DNA from: Escherichia phage bumzen
Direction: 5' to 3' (one strand)
Sequence record: MN850635.1
DNA: 64,000 nt
Positions 1-49,121 of the stretch are shown in pieces. A program made the translations under genes and the position numbers. Each line of letters starts with the position of its first letter. Position 1 is the first letter of the stretch. A model generated the notes under the pieces. The model searched no databases, was not told where the DNA came from, and saw only the letters and a program-made list of their open reading frames with translations.

Positions 1-3387
<3,387 letters not shown>

Positions 3388-3389
3388 TA

Positions 3390-4538
3390 ATGGCAGTAGG
3401 TGAAATTCAAATTAGTGCCTTGCCTCAAGCAGCCTTACCAATTGACCTTAGTGATATCTTCCATCTTAAACAGGGTATCGAGGATAAGAGATGTACTCTT
3501 GAGCAATTACTTGCTCCACACTCAAGCCTAAGAAATAACCCTCATGGTGTTACTAAGACACAAATTGGTTTAGATAACGTTATTAATGCTCTCCAGTTAG
3601 TCGCTGCAAATAACTTATCAGATATTGTTAATGTAGCTGAGGCAAGAGCAAATCTACAGATTATGTCTTCAGAAGAGGTTAATAGCCTTATTCAACAGCA
3701 TATTAATGACAAGAGCAACCCACACAATACAACTAAGGCGCAGGTTGGTTTAAGTAATGTCCAGAACTGGGTGACATCTAACCTTTATAATGAGGATGCA
3801 GATAAGTATGCTACAGCAAGAGCAGTAAATAACTTGTACAAGGCTGTTCAGGCTTCTTATCCAGTAGGTACTATCCATCTCTCTATGAATCCTGCAAACC
3901 CTTCTACATATTTAATTTGTGGAGGTACTTGGGAGTTAGTTTCAAAAGGAAGAGCACTTGTAGGTTATGATAGAGATTCTAGGCCAGTTGGTTCAACGTT
4001 TGGTTCACAGACTACTGCACTGACGGTTAATAACATCCCTGCACATACCCACTCAGTGTATGTCACTGGTGGTGGTCACACTCATGGTGCAACGGCCTCT
4101 GTCAGTGCTTTTGATTATGGCACTAAAGGGACTACAACGTTTGACTACGGAACCAAGACCGTATCTACTTACGACTATGGCAACAGAACAACAAGTGCCG
4201 CTGGCTTAACACAAACAACATTCATTAACCGTGGCTATGCTGATGGTGGCTGGAGAGGTTTATCGGTTGAGGGGGCAAGCTATGACCCAAGAGCTACGTT
4301 GACAACAGCTAACAACCACACTCACTCTGTAGCAATTGGTGCGCATAATCACACAGTGGGGATTGGTGCTCACAGCCATTCTGTTGCAATTGGTTCCCAC
4401 AACCACTCAGCAACAGTAACAGTAACCGGAGCAGGTGAGCATTCGCACTCTGGCACAACTGGCACAACTGGTTCTGGTCAAGCATTTAGCGTTGAGCAGC
4501 CATCCTTCGTATTGTATGTATGGCAGAGAACAGCTTAA
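3390..4538 (+). CDS. tail fiber protein (short paralog) with His-x-His repeat tip
   Basis: 382 aa; repeats HTHSV/GAHNHTVGIGAHSHSVAIGSHNHS and SFDYGTK; C-terminus (GSGQAFSVEQPSF..W.RTA) shared with next gene. Confidence 0.7.
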   Translation: MAVGEIQISALPQAALPIDLSDIFHLKQGIEDKRCTLEQLLAPHSSLRNNPHGVTKTQIGLDNVINALQLVAANNLSDIVNVAEARANLQIMSSEEVNSLIQQHINDKSNPHNTTKAQVGLSNVQNWVTSNLYNEDADKYATARAVNNLYKAVQASYPVGTIHLSMNPANPSTYLICGGTWELVSKGRALVGYDRDSRPVGSTFGSQTTALTVNNIPAHTHSVYVTGGGHTHGATASVSAFDYGTKGTTTFDYGTKTVSTYDYGNRTTSAAGLTQTTFINRGYADGGWRGLSVEGASYDPRATLTTANNHTHSVAIGAHNHTVGIGAHSHSVAIGSHNHSATVTVTGAGEHSHSGTTGTTGSGQAFSVEQPSFVLYVWQRTA

Positions 4539-4584
4539 TTTCTTTACAGGGGCTGTATAGCCCCTTTTAAGAGGAAAATTTATA

Positions 4585-6939
4585 ATGGCAGATTACAAGT
4601 TGAGTGAATTAAACTCAATTGATACAATTCGTTCAGACGACCTCCTTCATATCAGGGTTAAAAAGAGACCTGAAATGCTGGGTGATGAAGACCGTCGAAT
4701 GACCTATCAAGACTTCTTAGCGTCTTTTAAACTAGAAAGATTTGTCCAGATTGCTGGTAGCACTATGACGGGTGACTTAGGAATTGTCAAGTTACTTTAT
4801 GGTGGTAAGGCAGTATTTGACCCTACAGGTTCTTCTGAGATTACTATGGGGGATGTTTTAAAGGCTTTTAAAATCAATGCAAATGGTCTTAAACTAACTA
4901 TTGCAGATGCTTCAAGGTCTGCAACTGTTTATCATACTCTTAATAAGCCAAGTCCTAATGAACTTGGGATGAGAACTAATGAAGAGAATGATGCAAGATA
5001 CTCAAGATTGGCTGCAAATAACACCTTTAGAGGTACTCAAAATATTCTATCTGATAATGAAACTATTATTGTTAAGAATATTACACAAGGAATGCCGCTG
5101 TATATTCGCGGTCAAGATGCAGATGGTACTAACAGGTGGTATCTAGGTAATGATAACAAAGGTACAGACAATCTTGTTTTAAAAAATGTTAAATCTGGTG
5201 CATATGTAGCTATTTTGGGTAGCTTAATCACTGTGAACAAATCTATCCAGATTACTGGTCAAGTTCAACCTTCTGATTGGTCTAACTTAGATACTAGATA
5301 CTTTACTCAGACAGCAGCTAATCAGAGATTTGCACAGCTAGTTGGTAATAACACCTTCAGGGGTATTAACAATTTTGTAGGAGAGTTCAATATCACCAGA
5401 GATAACGCTGTGCTAGTCGTTAAGAATGCCACTGCTGCAACTGGACTGTACTTGCTGGGGCAGAAGGCTGATGGGACAAACAAGTTCTACTTAGGGACTG
5501 ATGACTCTGATTCTGTAGTTAATCTACATAACTACATCACAAGCACAACCATCTCTTTGTCAAATGTGATTACCACTACTAAGACTGTGAAAATCACTGG
5601 ACAAGTTCAACCTTCAGATTGGACTAACATTGACTCTAGATACATCTCAGCAGGAACTTTGAGTAATCTTGCTAAGTTAAGTGATGTAAACACTTTTAGG
5701 ATTGCACAGATTATTAATCAGAATGGTTCATTGTTACAGCTAAAGAATACTACACAAGACAAAGAGCTATACTTTGCTGGTCATAATGCTGATGGTGTTA
5801 GAAGGTGGTACATTGGGAATGGGGAACCATCCAACCCAGAAAGATTTATTATCCATAACGACAGAACTGCAACTACGATTTATATGCAAGATGATTTCTT
5901 GCTGAATAAAACTGTTAAAATTACTGGTCAAGTTCAACCATCTGATTGGTCTAACTTAGATGCTAGATACTTCACTCAGGCAGCAGCTAATCAGAGATTT
6001 ATGTATGCAGGTTCTACAGGAGAAGCTACAGAGCAGAATGCAGATGGTGTGGCATGGAACGCTAAAACAGGCTTATATAATGTAACCTCAACAAATGCTG
6101 ATTACACAGCACTTGTGTTTCAAATGTATCAGGGGGTGACCTCTTCTACTGCCTGTGCGCAATTAAAGTTCCAGTATAAAAACGGTGGAATGTGGTACAG
6201 AACATCTGTAGCTAGTAAAGGTTTTGAAGCTAAGTGGTCTAAGGTTTACACAGAGGCTCAGAAACCAACCCCTTCAGAGCTTGGTGCATACACTAAAGCA
6301 GAAACTGACCAGAAGATTGCACAGGCAGTAAGTGACTCTACAGACCTTAATAAAATCTACCCAGTAGGTATTGTAACGTGGTTTAACAGTAATGTTAACC
6401 CTAATACAGCACTGCCTGGTCTAACTTGGACGTACCTTAACAATGGTGTTGGTAGAACTATCAGAATTGCAGCAGCAAACGGTTCAGATGTTGCTACAAC
6501 AGGTGGTTCAGACTCTGTGACGTTAGCTGTTGGTAACTTACCATCACACACTCACAGTTTTTCTGCTACCACTTCATCTTTTGACTACGGAACAAAAAAC
6601 ACTAACACGACTGGTGCTCACGCTCACTCTGTAAGTGGCTCTACTTCATCTGCTGGTAACCACAACCATTCCATTTCGTGGATTGGTCAGAACTCTAAAC
6701 ACTACTCTGGTGGTGGTGGTGGTAGTATTGGTGTAGGACCGGGTTACACCGATGCTAACGGTGCTCACACCCACTCTGTAAGTGGTACTGCCGCTTCTGC
6801 TGGTAACCATGCTCACAGTGTAGGTATCGGTGCTCACACCCATACAGTTAGTGGTAACACTGGTGGTACAGGTTCTGGTTCAGCATTTAGTGTTACTAAC
6901 CAGTTCTACAAGTTAATGGCTTGGGTAAGAACTGCTTAA
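4585..6939 (+). CDS. tail fiber protein (long paralog) with internal tandem repeats and His-x-His tip
   Basis: 784 aa; three ~110 aa repeats each ending [15 protein letters not shown]; C-terminal GAH.HSV repeats and shared C-terminal motif. Confidence 0.75.
4987..5980 (+). repeat. three in-frame tandem ~330 bp repeats inside long tail fiber gene
   Basis: Near-identical DNA segments at ~5255, ~5593 and ~5923 (attactggtcaagttcaacc.tc.gattgg.ctaac). Confidence 0.7.
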
Positions 6940-37345: not shown

Positions 37346-37861
37346 ATGTATCTGTCAAACCTAAAACGTTCTGCTGCAATGTCAGTGCTAAGACTCAGCT
37401 TTGAGGAACGTCAAGAGTTCATTGACTCCCACCAATACGACCCTTCTAACTCCAATCACATGATTCTCTGGAATCGTGGCAGTACTCGTGAAAGAGCACT
37501 ATTCCGTTACTACCCGCATTACACCATAGATAACCTGTATGAATGTTTTGTTGTGAAGAACACCATTACAGTACTTAATAGACTTTGCAGATACACAGGT
37601 AGTCAATCCTTCACATTAGGCCACCACAAACCTGTTACAAAGGGTGGTGAGCATCACTGTGCAAACTGGTTTATCCAGACTAAACTTGATAATCAGAATC
37701 AAGGAGATAGCCTTCTAAGCACCCCTAAGATGACCTATGAAGAGCAAGAGAAATATATCAAAAATAATATGCCAGAGGTGCTTGACAACAACTATACAGA
37801 TTTGGCAATATCTCTCCTGTTGAAGTTCGAGACAGTTTATAGGGCAACTTACAATGGCTAA
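37346..37861 (+). CDS. HNH endonuclease
   Basis: GHHKPVTKGGEHHCANWFIQTKLDNQNQG matches the HH...N...N pattern of HNH nucleases. Confidence 0.5.
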   Translation: MYLSNLKRSAAMSVLRLSFEERQEFIDSHQYDPSNSNHMILWNRGSTRERALFRYYPHYTIDNLYECFVVKNTITVLNRLCRYTGSQSFTLGHHKPVTKGGEHHCANWFIQTKLDNQNQGDSLLSTPKMTYEEQEKYIKNNMPEVLDNNYTDLAISLLLKFETVYRATYNG

Positions 37862-38132
37862 AGAGAAGTGGGAAATTTTACCATTAGTGAGTGAAGGTGG
37901 TAATGGTTGTGAGATGTACATGATACGTGGTCATGTTCCAGAACCAATTGCACTTGAGATGGTAAACAATTTTACAGATGGCTCTTACAAAGATTTAGGA
38001 GAGCCAACTATAAAGCATCAATGGGTCAAACCTGTACCAGACAGCACAGGTAACTGTAGTGTACTTTATCACGTTGTAGACCCTGCAAAATGCAAATCTG
38101 CAATGGCAGTAACAAACATAACCTTTGATTGA
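37854..38132 (+). CDS. hypothetical protein
   Basis: 92 aa ORF. Confidence 0.35.
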   Translation: MAKEKWEILPLVSEGGNGCEMYMIRGHVPEPIALEMVNNFTDGSYKDLGEPTIKHQWVKPVPDSTGNCSVLYHVVDPAKCKSAMAVTNITFD

Positions 38133-38145
38133 GAGAGAGAAAACT

Positions 38146-39027
38146 ATGAAAACTGTTATTGAAGTCGTTGTCACCGCACAAGAGAAATTCTTCCACACAG
38201 AAAAATTTAATATCATCCAATTCCCATCTGGAGAAATTGGTGGAAACTTCTCTGAAGATTTTGTTAAGTTTACTGAGCGTAATGCTGGTAAGATTGACAA
38301 TGTTATACTTACTGTGCAGGGATATGATAAAGATACACTGTTTGCATTAGCTTTGGCTAAGGATGCCGTTGACAGTCTTGTTCCACATAAATCAGCGATG
38401 AAAACCGTTGTTTTCGGGTTCTTACCGAATGCTCGATATGACCGACATATGTTCAAAGGTGATTCAGCAGCACTGAAAGCTTTTGCCAACCTCGTTAATG
38501 CAATGGGCTTTGATGCAGTATGTGCTCTTGACCCTCACAGCAATGTTGCAGAAAACTTATTTAAGTGCTTTCAGGGCATGAAGCAAAAAGATGTAGCAGC
38601 ACACTTTGCAAGTGACCCACGCATTGATTTCTTGGTAGCCCCAGATGCAGGTGCAGCTAAGAAGACTGAAGAGACTGCTAAAGAGGTGGATAAACCATAT
38701 ATCACAATGTCTAAAATGCGTAACCTTAAGACTGGTGAAATTACTGGTATGCGAATCCTTGATGATGTTGATTTGACCGATAAAACTGTTATGATTCTCG
38801 ACGATATCTGTGATGGCGGTCGAACCTTCATAGAAGCAGCTAAACATCTTCGTGAAGCAGGTGCAAAACGTGTGGAACTCTATGTAACTCATGGCATTTT
38901 CTCTAAAGGTGTTGAAAGCTTACTTGACAATGGTATTGACCATATCTACACTACAAACACTTTAGGTGAAGCTAAAGACCGTGGCTTAACACATTATGGC
39001 CAAGTTACTGTAGCAACCATTGATTGA
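38146..39027 (+). CDS. ribose-phosphate pyrophosphokinase family protein (Prs-like; possible ADPR-pyrophosphate synthetase of NARP1)
   Basis: PRPP-binding signature VMILDDICDGGRT; start set at first ATG (track ORF begins 38125). Confidence 0.75.
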   Translation: MKTVIEVVVTAQEKFFHTEKFNIIQFPSGEIGGNFSEDFVKFTERNAGKIDNVILTVQGYDKDTLFALALAKDAVDSLVPHKSAMKTVVFGFLPNARYDRHMFKGDSAALKAFANLVNAMGFDAVCALDPHSNVAENLFKCFQGMKQKDVAAHFASDPRIDFLVAPDAGAAKKTEETAKEVDKPYITMSKMRNLKTGEITGMRILDDVDLTDKTVMILDDICDGGRTFIEAAKHLREAGAKRVELYVTHGIFSKGVESLLDNGIDHIYTTNTLGEAKDRGLTHYGQVTVATID

Positions 39028-39036
39028 AACTTTATA

Positions 39037-39058
39037 GGGGCTTGAAAGCCCCATTTTG
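39037..39058 (+). other. GC hairpin (ggggcttgaaagcccc) between Prs-like and NAMPT-like genes
   Basis: Perfect 6 bp stem followed by attttg; weak terminator or attenuator/processing site. Confidence 0.4.
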
Positions 39059-39072
39059 AGAGAGATTAAAAG

Positions 39073-40854
39073 ATGACTAAATCACTTTATGCAGTACCAG
39101 CAGGTTTAAACGCAGATGCTTACAAATCTGGTCATGTTTACCAGTATCCTAGTGCAACAGATTACTTGATGTTCAACCTGACACCACGTAGCGACAAATG
39201 GTTTAACAGCCCTTTAGCAATTGATGGTGTAGTGGCTTTTGGTATTCAACGTTTTGTTAAAGATTACTTGATAGACCACTGGAACGCCACTTTCTTTGAA
39301 CGTGATAAAAAAGAAGCAATTGACGAAATCTTAGAAGTTATGAATGGTGTTCTGGGGAAAGATGCTATCGGTCGAGAGCATTGGGAAGCACTTCACGACT
39401 TAGGTTATCTACCAGTTGAAGTGTACGCTGTAGAAGAAGGCACAGTTGTCCCGATGCGTGTCCCAATGATTGTCTTCCAGAACACTGTTTCAGGTTTCCA
39501 TTGGGTAGCAGGTTATCTAGAAGACGCTTTCTCTGCTGAGATTTGGAAGGCTTGCACCATTGCAACTATTGCATTGCACTACAAACGTATCTGTAAGAAG
39601 TGGGCTGACCTCACTTGCGACAACGACTTGCATTTACCTTATCAGTGCCATGACTTTGCTATGCGTGGTATGTCCGGCTTTACTGATGACGCATTCAACG
39701 CTGTAGGACACTTAACCAGCTTTAAAGGGACTGATAGCTTCCCTGCTGTATACACGGCTAAACGTATCTATGGGCAGACCTATCCAATCTCTGATATTGG
39801 AAGCTCTGTACCAGCCACTGAACACTCTGTAATGTGTGCAAACATTGCTTGGGAAGGTGGTAACGAGTTGGTTGAAGAAGAAAGACGATTTAAAGGTGAG
39901 TTACAAACCTTCCGTCGTTTCTTAACAGAAACTTACCCAACTGGTATTGCAAGTATTGTTTCAGACACTTATAACTTCTGGAGAACTGTGTCAGAAATCT
40001 TACCAGCACTTCGTAAAGAAATTATGGAACGTGATGGTAAGCTGGTAATTCGCCCTGACTCTGGAGACCCTGTACATATTGTCACAGGCTATAAAGCAAT
40101 CCACTTAGAGTGTGCTAAGAAGGCTTATTATGAGCACCTAAGCAAGCTGGAAGCTAGTGACACAATGTTGAATGCTGTTCTGAACATGAAGCTTGAAAAC
40201 ATCAACTATGGTATTGCTGGATGGCTACTGTCAGAAGGCTACGAAATGGTTGTTGACAAAGAAGACTTTGAAGTTGCTGATACAGTGATGTTGAAAAATG
40301 CTTATATGGTTGGCTCTGCAAACGTTGTAACACGTCCTGTAGCAGAGATTGATGGAGCTATTAAGACCCTGTACAACATCTTCGGAGGGACTATTAACTC
40401 TAAAGGGTTTAAGGTACTGGATGAGCACATCGGCCTTATCTATGGTGACTCTATCACGCTGGAACGTGCAAACGAAATCCTGAAGCGTCTGTATGAAATG
40501 GGTTTTGCAAGCTCTAACGTAGTGTTTGGTGTAGGCTCTTACACTTACCAGTACATGACTCGTGACACCTTTGCATTTGCTGTCAAAGCAACTCTTGCAA
40601 GCATTGGTGGTAAAGAGATTATGCTTGCAAAAGACCCTAAAACAGATAGTGGTGTTAAGAAATCTGCCTTTGGTGGTGTAGCACCTATGTGGGATGGTGA
40701 TAAGCTGAAAGCTGTAGATGGCTATGGATTCCAGAGTTTTGCAGATGTACTTGACCACCAAGCTTGTGCTTTACGTTTAGTCTTTAGCGACTCTGAGCAG
40801 TTCGGTTATACAACTCTTGGAGATATTCGAAATAATATTGACAAGCAGCTTTAA
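39073..40854 (+). CDS. nicotinamide phosphoribosyltransferase family protein (NAMPT-like; possible Namat of NARP1)
   Basis: 593 aa, recognised as NAMPT/NAPRTase-type by overall sequence character; adjacent to Prs-like gene. Confidence 0.7.
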   Translation: MTKSLYAVPAGLNADAYKSGHVYQYPSATDYLMFNLTPRSDKWFNSPLAIDGVVAFGIQRFVKDYLIDHWNATFFERDKKEAIDEILEVMNGVLGKDAIGREHWEALHDLGYLPVEVYAVEEGTVVPMRVPMIVFQNTVSGFHWVAGYLEDAFSAEIWKACTIATIALHYKRICKKWADLTCDNDLHLPYQCHDFAMRGMSGFTDDAFNAVGHLTSFKGTDSFPAVYTAKRIYGQTYPISDIGSSVPATEHSVMCANIAWEGGNELVEEERRFKGELQTFRRFLTETYPTGIASIVSDTYNFWRTVSEILPALRKEIMERDGKLVIRPDSGDPVHIVTGYKAIHLECAKKAYYEHLSKLEASDTMLNAVLNMKLENINYGIAGWLLSEGYEMVVDKEDFEVADTVMLKNAYMVGSANVVTRPVAEIDGAIKTLYNIFGGTINSKGFKVLDEHIGLIYGDSITLERANEILKRLYEMGFASSNVVFGVGSYTYQYMTRDTFAFAVKATLASIGGKEIMLAKDPKTDSGVKKSAFGGVAPMWDGDKLKAVDGYGFQSFADVLDHQACALRLVFSDSEQFGYTTLGDIRNNIDKQL

Positions 40855-40869
40855 AAGTATATGATAAGA

Positions 40870-40890
40870 GGCTCCTACGGGAGCCTTTTT
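40870..40890 (+). terminator. rho-independent terminator
   Basis: ggctcc-tacg-ggagcc then ttttt. Confidence 0.7.
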
Positions 40891-40907: not shown

Positions 40908-41243
40908 ATGAAAATCAAAGAAATGAACATTAACGTTGTCCTAGAAGAACGTTGGGAGAACATTAAGAAACCTGAAGATGGTAAAAAGTTCCTTAACAAA
41001 ATTTTAGTAGCAGCTAAAGAAGAACTGACTGGCAAGATTGCAGCAGCAATCACAATAAAAATCTGTGTAAAAGGTCTTCCACAACATCACCAATTTGCAC
41101 TTGACGAGTTTAAAGAAAGCTTCTACAATCCAAACAAACAGATGCTTGAAAGTAACTTTGCAGTGTCTACAAGTATCGTCCATGACAGAAGCTTTATCCT
41201 TTACAAGAATATGAGAGGTGAGTCATGCAAGCATATTGGATAG
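40908..41243 (+). CDS. hypothetical protein
   Basis: 111 aa ORF. Confidence 0.4.
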   Translation: MKIKEMNINVVLEERWENIKKPEDGKKFLNKILVAAKEELTGKIAAAITIKICVKGLPQHHQFALDEFKESFYNPNKQMLESNFAVSTSIVHDRSFILYKNMRGESCKHIG

Positions 41244-41401
41244 AAATTTTACTGTCACTTGGTAGTGTAGCAGTATTTGTTTACCTTCTTTGCAAGTACT
41301 ATGCAGAACACAAGAAGTGTGATTACTGCAACGGGGAAGGGTACACAAGAGCAGGTTGTTGCCCTATTTGTGGTGGTTCTGGTAAAATGTTTAATAAGTA
41401 A
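41225..41401 (+). CDS. small membrane protein with zinc-ribbon (below ORF-track cutoff)
   Basis: 58 codons; N-terminal TM; CDYCNGEGY...CCPICGGSG. Confidence 0.3.
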   Translation: MQAYWIEILLSLGSVAVFVYLLCKYYAEHKKCDYCNGEGYTRAGCCPICGGSGKMFNK

Positions 41402-41429: not shown

Positions 41430-43796
41430 ATGCGCATGGTAAACGACCACGCAGAAGTGATTAAGAGTTCAACTTCTTTGGAGACATCTCAAGCACAGAT
41501 TACAATGACACCTGAAATGTTCAGCCTTTTGAGTTCAGGTGTATACACATTCAAAGAAAGGGCAGTGATTCGTGAACTGTCATGTAACGCAGTAGATGCT
41601 CAAAAAGAAGCTGGAAAAGAGAACATCCCATTCCATGTGCATTTACCTACTCGATTTGAGCCTTACTTTGAAGTCCGTGACTTTGGAACTGGTTTAACCC
41701 ATGACAAAGTAATGAGTTTGTATCTGAACTATGGGGCTTCTACGAAGAATGACTCCAATGATTACATTGGTGCAATGGGTATCGGCTCAAAATCCCCATT
41801 TGCAATTGCTCAGTCATTCACAGTATCTAGCTATGTTGATGGTGTTGTTAATAAGTACTCTGTTTACCTTGAGAATGGTATCCCTCAAGTAACTAAGCTT
41901 ACTACCAACCCAACAAATGAACCCAATGGTTTAGCTGTACGTGTGGCAGTTGCTGACCATCGTATTTCAAAGTTCTTTGAAGAGGCTGGTCACGTATACT
42001 CATACTTTGCTGTGAAACCAGAAAGTAATATTGTATATGATGACGTGTTAGCAGATATGAACGTCATTGCCCGTGAAGAGGGTGTTTATGATGCCATGAT
42101 TCATAAGCAAAGCTGGCGTTCTAGTAGTAACAGGACAGAGTTTAATGTGGTGATGGGTAACATTGCCTACCCTGTTAACATGGAAGCATTACTTGGTGAT
42201 GATTTCTTCAAAATCTTGCCAGAATTTTTCCGTAGGAGCGTAGACCTTGTAAACATCTACATGCCTATTGGTTCAGTTGCTATTGCAGCTTCTCGTGAAG
42301 CATTGCAGATGAATGACACGACAAAAAATGTTATCATTGAGGCTACTAAAAAGATAACTGAAGCAATTACAAAGGATGTTATCAAGAAAGTTAATAGCCA
42401 ACCTACACTCATGGATGCTGCACAGGCTTATGCTGAGTTACGTTTGAACTCACGAGAGATGTTTAATGCTGTGTGTCCAAAGCTAGAGTGGGGAGGTGTT
42501 AAGCTTGATTCTCTGGAAGAAGAATTACTAAACATTCGTCGTGGAATTATCTACGCAGAAGACGGCTCAGTCATCTATGAACGTGACGGCAAAGGTAATA
42601 TTAAGGTTGACAGTAAAGGAAACAACATTCCTAAAGTGGACTACCTATACAATCCAGTTGCTTATGTTAAGTTCAACTCTTTAGAGAGTAAGATTCGTGC
42701 AACAGCACTTTCCTACACTCAAGAAGCAAGCATGTTCAATATCTTTGGTGCAATGCGTAAAAGTCAAATTGAACAGTTTTTGTTCGTGATTAATGACCGT
42801 CGCAATAAAAACGGTACTGAGAAGACTGTAGGACGCAATCAAATCTTGCGTGGTGCATGTCGAGATTATGCCAGTGAGTCGAATCTGTTTCACAGATACA
42901 ATGGTATTGTGTTTGTATTCTCGACTGAAAAAGAGTTAGATGATTTAATCAATCTACATAAACTTGATAAAAGCTTGTTAAAGATTGTGAAGATGTCTGA
43001 TAAGGAACACCATTATCAGCGTAAAGAAGCTGTGAGAGGTGTTGTAAAACTCTGGAAAGCTGTTCCAGCAGAAGGTGTAGCCTCATACACAGAGGTGTCA
43101 GAAGACTTAGACACGATTGAAGAGCCTCAGCTTTATATTAAGGCAGTAGGTGACACAGTTGATGGCGAATGTTTTTGCTCATCTCCAGATGATGTAGCTA
43201 AGTCAGTTGCCAATGTCATTGGAAAGACAGTCTATGTTTTCCGAAAAGCAAATTGGAAAAAGATACCAGAAGACTGGATTGAAGTAGATGAGAAGCTCTT
43301 GAACGACAGCTTAACTGATGTTCATTGGATTAATCATAACAGGTATATGACACGCGTCTGTATGCGTGGTGTCCTAGACCTTACAAGCTGTTGGATTATT
43401 ACCAGAAACTTTACGTTCAATAACAGGAAGATTTCTGATGGTTATTGCTATTCACGGGATACAAACAAAACTATCTTCCTAGAAGGTAATGAAGATGCTG
43501 TTGAGGCAATGTTCGGTAAAATCCAATACATTGCTGCACAATTTGCATACACTTACACTATTAGTGTGTTGCAAGATTTGAAAAGGTGTCTTGATAATGA
43601 TACAAAACTTTACAAGAAAATTAAGAAAGCTGGTGACCGTATGTTTATTAAGGTAACAAACTACTTCTCAAAAAGAAAACAAGAAAACTTCTTGCTTTCT
43701 CATCTAGATTGGAATAAAGTGTCACCCGTCGAAGTAAGTAAGTTCTTAGGCTTTGATGTGAAGTGTGTCCCAGAAGGTACTACAATTTACAATTAA
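41430..43796 (+). CDS. rIIA: rIIA-like protein with GHKL-type ATPase domain
   Basis: 788 aa; RAVIRELSCNAVDA, RDFGTGLT, SNDYIGAMGIGSKSPF match remembered T4 rIIA N-terminal motifs. Confidence 0.65.
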   Translation: MRMVNDHAEVIKSSTSLETSQAQITMTPEMFSLLSSGVYTFKERAVIRELSCNAVDAQKEAGKENIPFHVHLPTRFEPYFEVRDFGTGLTHDKVMSLYLNYGASTKNDSNDYIGAMGIGSKSPFAIAQSFTVSSYVDGVVNKYSVYLENGIPQVTKLTTNPTNEPNGLAVRVAVADHRISKFFEEAGHVYSYFAVKPESNIVYDDVLADMNVIAREEGVYDAMIHKQSWRSSSNRTEFNVVMGNIAYPVNMEALLGDDFFKILPEFFRRSVDLVNIYMPIGSVAIAASREALQMNDTTKNVIIEATKKITEAITKDVIKKVNSQPTLMDAAQAYAELRLNSREMFNAVCPKLEWGGVKLDSLEEELLNIRRGIIYAEDGSVIYERDGKGNIKVDSKGNNIPKVDYLYNPVAYVKFNSLESKIRATALSYTQEASMFNIFGAMRKSQIEQFLFVINDRRNKNGTEKTVGRNQILRGACRDYASESNLFHRYNGIVFVFSTEKELDDLINLHKLDKSLLKIVKMSDKEHHYQRKEAVRGVVKLWKAVPAEGVASYTEVSEDLDTIEEPQLYIKAVGDTVDGECFCSSPDDVAKSVANVIGKTVYVFRKANWKKIPEDWIEVDEKLLNDSLTDVHWINHNRYMTRVCMRGVLDLTSCWIITRNFTFNNRKISDGYCYSRDTNKTIFLEGNEDAVEAMFGKIQYIAAQFAYTYTISVLQDLKRCLDNDTKLYKKIKKAGDRMFIKVTNYFSKRKQENFLLSHLDWNKVSPVEVSKFLGFDVKCVPEGTTIYN

Positions 43797-43801
43797 AGTG
43801 T

Positions 43802-43831
43802 TTGACAAGGGGCTTTGAAGCCCCTTAGAAT
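43802..43831 (+). promoter_or_regulatory. sigma70-like promoter with embedded GC hairpin
   Basis: TTGACA - 18 bp (aggggctttgaagcccct) - TAGAAT upstream of 43876 gene. Confidence 0.45.
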
Positions 43832-43875
43832 AACCTCACAAAATGATTTATTAACTAACAAGAGAGAGTAATAAG

Positions 43876-44985
43876 ATGACTACTAAAACTAAAGCACAGA
43901 TTGACGCAGAAATTTACAAACTGGTTAAAGAAGGTAAGCTGACTAAAACAGCTATTGCACAGAAGTTCAATACTTCAACCCGTTCAGTTGGTCGTGCTGT
44001 AGAGCGTCATGAAGCAACCTTAAAGGGTAAGAAAAAGGTAGCTTCTAAGCCAGCTACGAAGACTTTGAAGCAAGTTGCTAAATCAGTTAAAAAGAAAGCT
44101 GGAAAACCAGTTGAAAAGGTTGTTAAAGAGGCTGTACAGAAAGCTCCGGTAAATAAACTACACGAAGCTATGCAGAAAGATGACAAGATTGAGTACATGA
44201 TTACTGGTGACTCTGTAATTATGACTTATGGTTCAGAATCTGAAATTGTTGAGTCTACTCATCCGAACTATCAAGAGATTGTAGTTCATGTTGTGAAAGG
44301 TGAGTTCAAGAAAGCTTTCGAACTGATGAACATTCGTAAATCTATCGAAAACTTCACTCAGGGTGCTATCACAATCAAAGGTGACAAGTTATTCTATGGT
44401 GCTGTTGAGATGCGTTCTACTCTGGTTGACCGTATCCTTCACATGATGAAGACTGGTGATAAAGGTTTTGAACGACTTGTAATGTTCTTCGAAAAACTGA
44501 TGGAAAACCCATCTAAAGACTCTGTAGAACAACTTTGGGGATTTGTATCTCACCTTGATGTTGAAATTGATGAAGAAGGTTACATCATTGGTTGGAAGAA
44601 AGTCTCTACTCGTGAAGGCAAGTTGGTTGACTCCCACACCTACAAAGTACCTAATGATTTGGGTAACATTGTAGAGATGCCACGTTGGATGGTTGATAAC
44701 AATCGTAACGTAACTTGCTCTCAAGGTCTTCATGTCGGTGCTTGGGATTATGTTCGTTACTTCTCAGGTGATACCATCCTGAAGGTTCGTGTCCATCCAC
44801 GAGATGTTGTATCTGTTCCAACTGATTACAACGATATGAAGATGCGTTCCTCTCGTTATGAAGTTGCAGCAATCGTTGATAATCAACGTAAAGTGCTGAA
44901 AGAATGGGATGGCAAGACTGAAGCTTTGCATGTCATCGTTGGCACTGCTGGTGAACTAATCTCCCAACGTAAACGTGAAATCTAA
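43876..44985 (+). CDS. rIIB: putative rIIB-like protein
   Basis: 369 aa directly downstream of rIIA-like gene; synteny only. Confidence 0.4.
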   Translation: MTTKTKAQIDAEIYKLVKEGKLTKTAIAQKFNTSTRSVGRAVERHEATLKGKKKVASKPATKTLKQVAKSVKKKAGKPVEKVVKEAVQKAPVNKLHEAMQKDDKIEYMITGDSVIMTYGSESEIVESTHPNYQEIVVHVVKGEFKKAFELMNIRKSIENFTQGAITIKGDKLFYGAVEMRSTLVDRILHMMKTGDKGFERLVMFFEKLMENPSKDSVEQLWGFVSHLDVEIDEEGYIIGWKKVSTREGKLVDSHTYKVPNDLGNIVEMPRWMVDNNRNVTCSQGLHVGAWDYVRYFSGDTILKVRVHPRDVVSVPTDYNDMKMRSSRYEVAAIVDNQRKVLKEWDGKTEALHVIVGTAGELISQRKREI

Positions 44986-45001
44986 TAAGTAATTTCTTAA
45001 A

Positions 45002-45030
45002 AGGCTGCTTCGGCGGCCTTTTTTATTTGT
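45002..45030 (+). terminator. rho-independent terminator with UUCG loop
   Basis: aaggctgc-ttcg-gcggcctt then ttttatttg. Confidence 0.7.
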
Positions 45031-48335: not shown

Positions 48336-49121
48336 ATGGGTATTGTAAAAATCATCAATGGGGATATCTTCTCCGCATTTGATAAAGGTAAGTTTGATAT
48401 TATTGGTCACGGTTGCAACTGTATGAATTTAATGGGTGCAGGTATCGCTGACAAGATTTCTAAACTTTACCCAAAAGCATATGAGACCGATACAGAAGTT
48501 TATCTGTATGCAGGTGGCATAGGCCACAAACCCTGTGAAAATTTACTAGGGAATTTCTCTGTAGCACGTTTAGAACAAGGCCGTATAGCTAACCTTTACA
48601 CACAACTTCATACTGGTAAAGATGCCCGATACAGTGCTTTAGAGTCATCTTTGAAGAAACTTAACATGTACTGTGAAGTCAATCAGTTGAAGAAAGTCGG
48701 GTTACCTATGATTGGCGCAGGTATCGGTGGACTAGACCCTCAAGCCGTCACAGTTATCATTAATCAGGTGATGAAGAGTGTAGATGTTTATCTGTATGTC
48801 TACGAAGGAGAGATGTACCACAAGTTACGCTCAGGTTGGAATAACTACTGTGAACCAGAATACTTTGCAGGTGTAGTAATGTTCACAGATGATACAGTTA
48901 CCCTCTTCAGACGAAGAAAAGGTAAGATACATCAAAGTAACCCTCCGGTTGAGAAGATGTCTCTAAGTAACGCTCTAGTTACCCACCTGTCAAAGAGCAA
49001 TCACAGAATTGCTGTAACATTTGGTAGTGATGCAGAAGCTTATATCTATGCAAGAACTGATGAGGATATCGAGGCAATCTTCTCTTCACCAGAAGTTACC
49101 TTCTTAGACGCAAAGAACTAA
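48336..49121 (+). CDS. macro-domain-like protein (ADP-ribose binding/hydrolase fold) with C-terminal extension
   Basis: NGDIFSAF...DIIGHGCNCMNLMGAGIA and LPMIGAGIGGLDPQAV resemble macro-domain motifs. Confidence 0.4.
   Translation: MGIVKIINGDIFSAFDKGKFDIIGHGCNCMNLMGAGIADKISKLYPKAYETDTEVYLYAGGIGHKPCENLLGNFSVARLEQGRIANLYTQLHTGKDARYSALESSLKKLNMYCEVNQLKKVGLPMIGAGIGGLDPQAVTVIINQVMKSVDVYLYVYEGEMYHKLRSGWNNYCEPEYFAGVVMFTDDTVTLFRRRKGKIHQSNPPVEKMSLSNALVTHLSKSNHRIAVTFGSDAEAYIYARTDEDIEAIFSSPEVTFLDAKN

Follow-up and report, generated by a model that had tools for sequence, protein, structure and literature searches.

The rIIA/rIIB gene pair of Escherichia phage bumzen and its probable role in counter-defence

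We analyzed 64,000 nucleotides of DNA from Escherichia phage bumzen (sequence record MN850635.1; one strand, 5' to 3'), a stretch that is called the window below, and focused on two adjacent genes that occupy positions 41430 to 44985. An earlier reading, made from the letters alone (the original prediction), had described these genes as an rIIA/rIIB-like pair. We found that both open reading frames (ORFs) lie where it had placed them: rIIA at 41430–43796 on the + strand (788 amino acids (aa); phrog_612 'RIIA') and rIIB at 43876–44985 on the + strand (369 aa; phrog_609 'RIIB'). Judged by sequence, both are true orthologues of phage T4's rIIA and rIIB genes. By analogy with tested relatives, they very probably form a counter-defence pair that is dispensable on naive hosts and needed against the defence systems RexAB and QatABCD.

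The pair was known before, through annotation as well as through experimental work on orthologues. It is textbook material: hundreds of Felixounavirus genomes already carry the annotation, and functional tests of the orthologues have been made in phages Bas63 and SUSP1. The stretch of ~8 kb around it holds at least two counter-defence modules validated in relatives, namely NARP1, which acts against NAD+-depleting systems, and rIIA/rIIB, which acts against RexAB and QatABCD. As a landmark, it is of use when Felix O1-like phages are selected or engineered for diagnostics or therapy. The dissection of domains given here also bears on rII biochemistry, with a GHL ATPase, a helix-turn-helix (HTH) joined to an orphan domain, two unrelated defences and an upstream zinc-knuckle ORF.

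Orthology to the T4 rII genes and function in relatives

The rIIA protein matched phrog_612 with E = 2.8e-189 over aa 1–771, and the rIIB protein matched phrog_609 with E = 2.8e-89 (PHROG profiles). T4's own proteins (NP_049616, NP_049889) fell into the same PHROGs (T4 rIIA in phrog_612, 9e-250; T4 rIIB in phrog_609, 6.6e-111). The original prediction had named a homology search against T4 rIIA and rIIB as its check, and a lack of significant similarity as the outcome that would speak against it. We ran this search, and the similarity to the T4 rII proteins was clear. With BLASTP, the window rIIA was 32% identical to T4 rIIA over aa 24–317 (E = 9e-38), and the window rIIB was 37% identical to T4 rIIB over aa 11–339, which is nearly full length (E = 6e-62). 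For rIIA, only the N-terminal ~300 aa were aligned by BLASTP, whereas hhalign reached ~580 residues; here the profile of 92 rIIA homologues matched T4 rIIA with a probability of 100% (E = 1.3e-57, 545 columns). The Pfam family PF26926 was found in the precomputed matches of nearly all rIIB homologues.

In the window, rIIA is directly upstream of rIIB on the same strand, with a spacer of 79 nucleotides (nt). The same order, rIIA and then rIIB, was found in T4, Shewanella phage 1/40, the N4-like phage Jura and four Ounavirinae. Besides gene order and strand, the T4 pair shares with that of the window the GHKL motifs in rIIA, and the HTH and a conserved C-terminal domain in rIIB. The two pairs differ in that the window rIIB carries a 38-aa lysine-rich linker and a C-terminal extension of ~30 aa, neither of which is found in T4 rIIB. 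In addition, the T4 pair adjoins topoisomerase gene 60, not NARP1.

The phrog_609 profile is itself composite. Over its 1055 positions, the N-termini of rIIA proteins match at ~19–310 and rIIB proteins match at ~751–1049. The profile thus contains fused or merged rIIA–rIIB sequences, and a phrog_609 match alone cannot tell rIIA from rIIB.

The window belongs to Felixounavirus (Felix O1-like coliphages). A megablast search with the locus returned 276 phage records, 210 of which cover at least 80% of it, and most are annotated as rIIA/rIIB. The matches are overwhelmingly Felixounavirus and other Ounavirinae, and the best of them, at 96.7% identity, are the Escherichia phages dune and momo. The rIIB protein is 99.7% identical to rIIB of phage ULIM8, and the rIIB family is present in 2,910 phage records. 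Bas63 (JohannRWettstein, MZ501086) is of the same genus, with identical synteny from g73 to g95 and an rIIA (gp84) that is 97.0% identical to that of the window. Its gp85 is 83.7% identical to the window rIIB, owing to two recombinant segments that are described below, and it has an extra gene, g81, between the NARP1 gene Namat and the rII unit. The phage phiSUSP1 belongs to Ounavirinae like the window and has the same synteny, with 62.8% identity in rIIA and 82.0% in rIIB. The conserved order is nrdG, NARP1, the rII pair, an SLT-like protein, polynucleotide kinase, spanins and a macro-domain 'phosphatase'; dune, Bas63 and SUSP1 keep this order, and so, as far as could be judged, does Wc4. No tRNA genes were found by a tRNA scan of the window.

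Experiments on relatives have tied the pair to counter-defence. In a PhageMaP study (bioRxiv 10.1101/2024.10.10.617714), deletion of g84 or g85 in Bas63 reduced plating on QatABCD hosts by 10^4–10^5-fold, and complementation restored it. In CRISPRi-ART experiments, T4, MM02, EdH4, SUSP1 and N4 plated less well after knockdown of RIIA or RIIB on lambda RexAB hosts only, and naive hosts showed no effect. These rII pairs come from five genera and are less than 40% identical, and all of them counter lambda RexAB. HIDEN-SEQ has confirmed the dependence of T4 on rII on RexAB hosts, and has placed the RIIA and RIIB orthologues of Bas37 among the genes with the strongest depletion on a uropathogenic isolate. 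The RIIB protein of T6 acts as a trigger of CARD/gasdermin systems and, by itself, is toxic to E. coli.

The PhageMaP study also states that gp84/85 of Bas63 have '>80% sequence homology' to T4 RIIA/B. We could not reproduce this value: the orthologues in the window share 97% and 84% identity with gp84 and gp85, and their identity to the T4 proteins is 32% and 37%.

Domain anatomy and mode of action

The N-terminal part of rIIA (aa ~24–330; 41499–42419, +) was modelled as a GHL-type ATPase module, consisting of a Bergerat fold and a transducer-like domain. Conservation was scored across 92–93 rIIA homologues. The GHKL motifs that had been noticed in the first ORF are present, and motifs I–III are intact across this set. 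Motif I, E49-x3-N53-x2-D56 (VIRELSCNAVDA; 41574–41597, +), is invariant. In motif II, D84-F-G86-T-G88 (41679–41693, +), D84 and G86 are invariant and G88 is conserved in at least 90% of the homologues. Motif III with the ATP lid, G114-AM-G117-I-G119-S-K121 (41769–41792, +), has invariant residues at G114, G117, G119 and K121. The end of the module is marked by R289-E290 (AASRE motif; 42294–42299, +), which are also invariant columns. By comparison with the arginine of Hsp90 and the lysine of MutL/GyrB, this motif would be a candidate gamma-phosphate sensor.

The AlphaFold2 model of rIIA (predicted local distance difference test (pLDDT) 88.0) matched GHL ATPases over 250–350 residues, covering the ATP-binding and transducer domains. 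The structure comparison gave scores of 18.1 against TRAP1/Hsp90, 17.1 against MORC3, 17.0 against MORC2, 16.6 against SMCHD1, 16.2 against the topoisomerase II ATPase of phage T6, 16.0–16.1 against topoisomerase VI-B and 15.1 against MutL. In sequence, the identity of rIIA to these GHL ATPases (Hsp90/TRAP1, MORC2/3, SMCHD1, MutL and topoisomerase II/VI subunits) is just 11–15%. The module gave no match above any curated family threshold, and no PDB entry matched rIIA by sequence. For the C-terminal ~450 aa, no solved relative was detected by structure comparison of the model, and this half of the protein varies by lineage. Iyer et al. (2021; PMC7824862) have independently described rIIA as a GHKL domain followed by a C-terminal domain that varies greatly. 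According to the model, the first ~330 aa of rIIA form a complete ATPase of the Hsp90/MORC/MutL/topoisomerase II type with invariant catalytic motifs, and the protein probably works as a dimerising clamp that depends on ATP and is competent in catalysis.

The model of rIIB (pLDDT 85.5) consists of four parts: an HTH, a linker, a mixed alpha/beta middle domain and a beta-rich C-terminal domain. The N-terminal HTH (aa 1–51; 43876–44028, +) resembles the DNA-binding domains of sigma region 4, DnaA, DeoR and KorA. The lysine-rich linker (aa 54–91; 44035–44148, +) is predicted to be disordered, with pLDDT below 50, and aa 51–95 contain 15 K/R against 2 D/E. The conserved C-terminal domain (aa ~195–340; 44458–44895, +) has pLDDT of 91–98 and carries invariant or near-invariant columns with the signature ...VEMPR...TCSxGLHVG...Y...P.DVVSVP.DYN..KMR..RY.V. 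The invariant residues include F204, G235, V273, C281, G284 and P308, and all invariants fall within aa 204–328. Comparison by profile and by structure gave this domain no significant relative among solved structures. The distant relatives of rIIB that were found, in N4-like and some Pseudomonas phages, match the window protein over the C-terminal part only. No rII protein structure was found in the PDB by sequence search.

The rIIB gene is also a mosaic. It is 84% identical to Bas63 gp85, compared with 91–100% for the neighbouring genes compared. The divergence from Bas63 lies in two segments, aa ~96–150 and aa 236–369, in which the synonymous substitution rate (dS) is saturated (0.8–1.9) and the ratio of nonsynonymous to synonymous rates (dN/dS) is 0.16–0.31. 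In amino-acid sequence, the C-terminal segment resembles SUSP1 more closely than Bas63. The saturated dS and these dN/dS values speak against positive selection as the source of the low identity, a reading that we rejected, and indicate recombination with divergent rIIB alleles. The sequences point to an exchange of rIIB alleles between Ounavirinae genera.

The two defences that the pair counters in relatives are of different kinds. In RexAB, a sensor that binds DNA (RexA) is coupled to a membrane protein (RexB), and RexA mutants defective in DNA binding lose the exclusion of T4 rII mutants. QatABCD combines a QueC-like QatBC complex, which modifies a protein N-terminus, with a TatD nuclease, and its biochemistry is not membrane-based. 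Because the same pair counters both of these unrelated systems, an action upstream of them, on a shared infection cue, is suggested. Since rII pairs that are less than 40% identical all counter lambda Rex, a shared cue is also the most economical model. In T4, phiMAM1, Shewanella phage 1/40 and the N4-like phage Jura the rII genes adjoin topoisomerase, ligase or replication genes, and no NAD genes. A GHL clamp, a partner with an HTH and a lysine-rich segment, and such DNA-metabolism neighbours outside Ounavirinae together suggest a nucleoprotein substrate.

We therefore put forward, tentatively and as a real possibility, that rIIA and rIIB mask a cue upstream of the defences. The pair would act on what RexAB and QatABCD sense and not on each effector separately. 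An ATP-driven, dimerising rIIA clamp would work with a DNA-binding rIIB, and the two would remodel or mask a phage nucleoprotein intermediate, which may be membrane-associated.

Several points weigh against this proposal, and against carrying the counter-defence role over to the window. The functional data all come from relatives. Because the window rIIB carries imported segments and shares only 84% identity with the Bas63 allele that was tested, its specificity could differ. That rIIB binds DNA and that rIIA hydrolyses ATP are predictions, and the masking of a trigger at the DNA level is a mechanism that we infer. In classical work, Mg2+, polyamines or sucrose suppressed the rII phenotype and the T4 rII proteins were located in the membrane fraction; a role in membrane or ion homeostasis would fit these findings equally well. 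The PhageMaP study has proposed membrane depolarisation for QatABCD, acting via QatB. The structural papers on QatBC from 2026 that were consulted describe the QatB–QatC complex and do not discuss membrane depolarisation, and so they lend this proposal no support. Finally, the hexamers of a putative promoter before rIIB, described in the next section, are not evident in the distant relative Wc4.

The alternative that fares best is rather unlikely in our judgement. It holds that rIIA and rIIB protect the integrity of the inner membrane, acting downstream of the effectors and steadying potential or ion balance against the RexB channel or other damage. The T4 record and the annotation of Bas63 both use the term 'membrane integrity protector', RexAB acts through membrane depolarisation, and the suppression by Mg2+, polyamines and sucrose agrees with such a role. 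A small ORF with a transmembrane (TM) helix and zinc knuckles (orf58, see below), which is conserved upstream of rIIA in Ounavirinae, could tether the rII proteins. However, no TM helix was predicted in either rIIA or rIIB, and the GHL ATPase and HTH folds are typical of nucleic-acid or chaperone machines. Moreover, in QatABCD the QatBC core is soluble and is accompanied by a TatD nuclease, and no membrane effector is evident.

It is improbable that the pair works as a direct inhibitor, with rIIA and rIIB binding and inactivating RexA or a Qat protein, their specificity being set by rIIA's variable C-terminal half and by the mosaic stretches of rIIB. The high variability of this half across lineages and the exchanged segments in rIIB alleles could be explained in this way, and RIIB is sensed by CARD/gasdermin systems and is thus 'visible' to host immune proteins. 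However, the countering of lambda RexAB by pairs from five genera that share less than 40% identity is hard to square with specific binding, as is the action of one pair against unrelated systems, and the mosaic patches are under purifying, not diversifying, selection (dN/dS 0.16–0.31).

Iyer et al. (PMC7824862) regarded rIIB as primarily a transcription factor, in which case the anti-defence phenotypes would follow indirectly from mis-timed expression. The likeness of the N-terminal HTH to sigma region 4, DeoR and KorA agrees with their interpretation, which we consider very unlikely all the same: it is the C-terminal domain and not the HTH that is most conserved and holds all the invariants, the distant relatives match over the C-terminal part only, loss of rIIA gives the same phenotype, and rII knockdown leaves naive hosts unaffected.

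A last reading, in which the C-terminal domain of rIIB is a cryptic ADP-ribosyltransferase (ART)-like, NAD+-using fold coupled to NARP1 and the macro-domain gene, would fit the toxicity of RIIB by itself and is highly improbable: the ART resemblance is weak and uncorroborated, since Foldseek with this domain found nothing significant and no ART match, its profile gave no match among PDB sequences at E values as high as 10, lax Pfam scans returned DUF7666 only (5/28 members), and the residues that all homologues share offered no place for an H-Y-E or R-S-E triad; T4 rIIB lacks the C-terminal 'GE', and rII is unlinked to NAD genes outside Ounavirinae.

Transcription unit, promoter and small ORFs

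Two intrinsic terminators bracket orf111, orf58, rIIA and rIIB as a single unit. One follows Namat (40866–40889, +) and separates NARP1 from the rII unit. The other ends the unit at 44999–45022 (+); it has a 10-bp stem with 5 GC pairs and a T-run, and folds at −15.5 kcal/mol (z = −4.5).

Inside this unit, a sigma-70-like putative promoter precedes rIIB at 43802–43831 (+), with TTGACA at 43802–43807, a spacer of 18 nt and TAGAAT at 43826–43831. The element, including the GC hairpin embedded in its spacer, is as the original prediction described it. It agrees with the consensus at 11/12 positions and is joint best in the 11.8-kb region that was scanned. In the whole window, 3 copies of the pattern TTGACA-N15–20-TANAAT were counted, where 0.91 would be expected. 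Dune, Bas63 and SUSP1 have both hexamers unchanged (in SUSP1 the spacer is 17 nt), and the spacer downstream of the promoter has diverged.

The hairpin (AAGGGGCU-UUGA-AGCCCCUU; 43807–43826, +) folds at −13.3 to −14.2 kcal/mol (z = −2.5). Its stem is identical and its loop variable in the same three phages, and Wc4 has an unrelated GC stem at the corresponding position. The sequence 3' of the hairpin is UAGAAUAA, which has no U-tract, and the hairpin is thus not a canonical terminator; it was also absent from the list of the terminator scan, and we rejected it as a Rho-independent terminator. The putative internal promoter would make it possible to express rIIB separately from rIIA. Because its transcripts would start downstream of the hairpin, they would not include it, whereas transcripts from upstream would carry it, and on these it could serve as a pause site or a 3'-stabilising structure. 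We infer both promoter use and hairpin function from the sequence.

A similar arrangement was seen at the start of the unit. A promoter-like TTGACA-16-TATGAT at 40838–40865 ends where the hairpin of the Namat terminator starts. Transcripts that start ~7 nt downstream of TATGAT would lose most of the 5' arm of this hairpin, and escape from termination would therefore be possible. The segment 40838–40889 may be a compact terminator/promoter cassette, comparable to the hairpin in the spacer before rIIB.

Two small ORFs precede rIIA within the unit. The first, orf111 (40908–41243, +; 111 aa, phrog_4262), is 96.4% identical to bas63_0082 and is also present in SUSP1. The second, orf58 (41225–41401, +; 58 aa, phrog_3931), is immediately upstream of rIIA and was missed by the ORF cut-off of 60 aa. 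It has an N-terminal TM helix (Kyte-Doolittle maximum 2.11) and two zinc-knuckle motifs of the DnaJ type, CxxCxGxG; the match to DnaJ_CXXCXGXG is sub-threshold. This architecture is kept upstream of rIIA in Bas63 (g83), SUSP1 and Wc4 despite divergence in sequence, and it was absent upstream of rIIA in T4, Shewanella phage 1/40 and phage Jura. A small partner gene shared with T4 was considered and rejected: T4 rIIA.1 is a soluble 67-aa protein of another PHROG than orf58. Nor is orf58 related to the small ORFs that precede rIIA in Shewanella phage 1/40 and Jura. It is possible that orf58 is a lineage-specific membrane partner of the rII proteins, which have no TM helix themselves, and we hypothesise that it belongs to the rII module.

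NAD genes, macro-domain gene and the surrounding region

The original prediction placed the rII pair directly downstream of a 'Prs-like/NAMPT-like' pair. Two adjacent NAD-related genes do lie nearby, and their proper identity is the NARP1 pair, with Adps at 38125–39027 and Namat at 39073–40854 (together 38125–40854, +), as indicated by Pfam, PHROG and NCBIfam matches. Adps is 93.7% and Namat 98.5% identical to g79 and g80 of Bas63. The function of NARP1 has been shown experimentally for g79–80 of Bas63, which counter SIR2-HerA, and was confirmed independently by the PhageMaP study; NARP1 is a proven counter to NAD+ depletion. The word 'directly' was too strong, since between 40854 and 41430 the terminator at 40866–40889 and the two small ORFs intervene.

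The gene at 37346–37861 (+) is the homologue of g77 of Bas63, with 97.7% identity. PhageMaP has reported that g77 counters retron Ec67 and has a GIY-YIG domain. In the window homologue, no GIY-YIG domain was found by Pfam, and DUF7167 gave a sub-threshold match only.

A macro-domain gene of 261 aa, DarG/TARG1-like, lies at 48336–49121 (+; Pfam Macro, E = 4.3e-7). Its DarG matches in NCBIfam and PADLOC are both sub-threshold, and among solved sequences the protein is closest to the macrodomains of DarG (5m31 and 5m3i) and to OARD1 (TARG1; 4j5r). Entries for ADPR-1''-phosphatases matched at E = 0.02 only, over ~50 aa. The gene is 3.3 kb and about ten genes past rIIB, and it starts ~7.5 kb and more than a dozen genes downstream of Namat. 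In the literature, NARP1-AP is recognised by a Poa1p-like macro gene (Adpp) within two genes of NARP1. We considered the macro gene as this NARP1-associated ADPR-1''-phosphatase and ruled it out by its position and its closest relatives. A reasonable guess from its sequence is that it is a candidate anti-DarT factor, acting against DNA ADP-ribosylation. In relatives, the protein is annotated as 'putative phosphatase', and it has an extra C-terminal region of ~100 aa.

The NAD genes, the rII pair and the macro gene had been taken together as an anti-exclusion island. This suggestion holds in so far as three counters validated in Bas63 (g77, g79–80 and g84–85) have their homologues within ~8 kb. 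It fails in other respects. The terminator at 40866–40889 splits NARP1 from rII into separate transcription units; an SLT-like lysin, polynucleotide kinase and spanins stand between rIIB and the macro gene; and the role of the macro gene, as judged from its sequence, is only putative. The linkage of NARP1 with rII was found only within Ounavirinae. It thus appears as a lineage-specific synteny and gives no evidence of a mobile or co-selected cassette.

Within the NARP1 pair, relatives differ by an inserted gene. No HNH endonuclease is present in the window (39027–39073) or in Bas63. In dune and SUSP1, an HNH homing endonuclease has been inserted between Adps and Namat (dune locus 3268–3759; SUSP1 locus 4235–4726).

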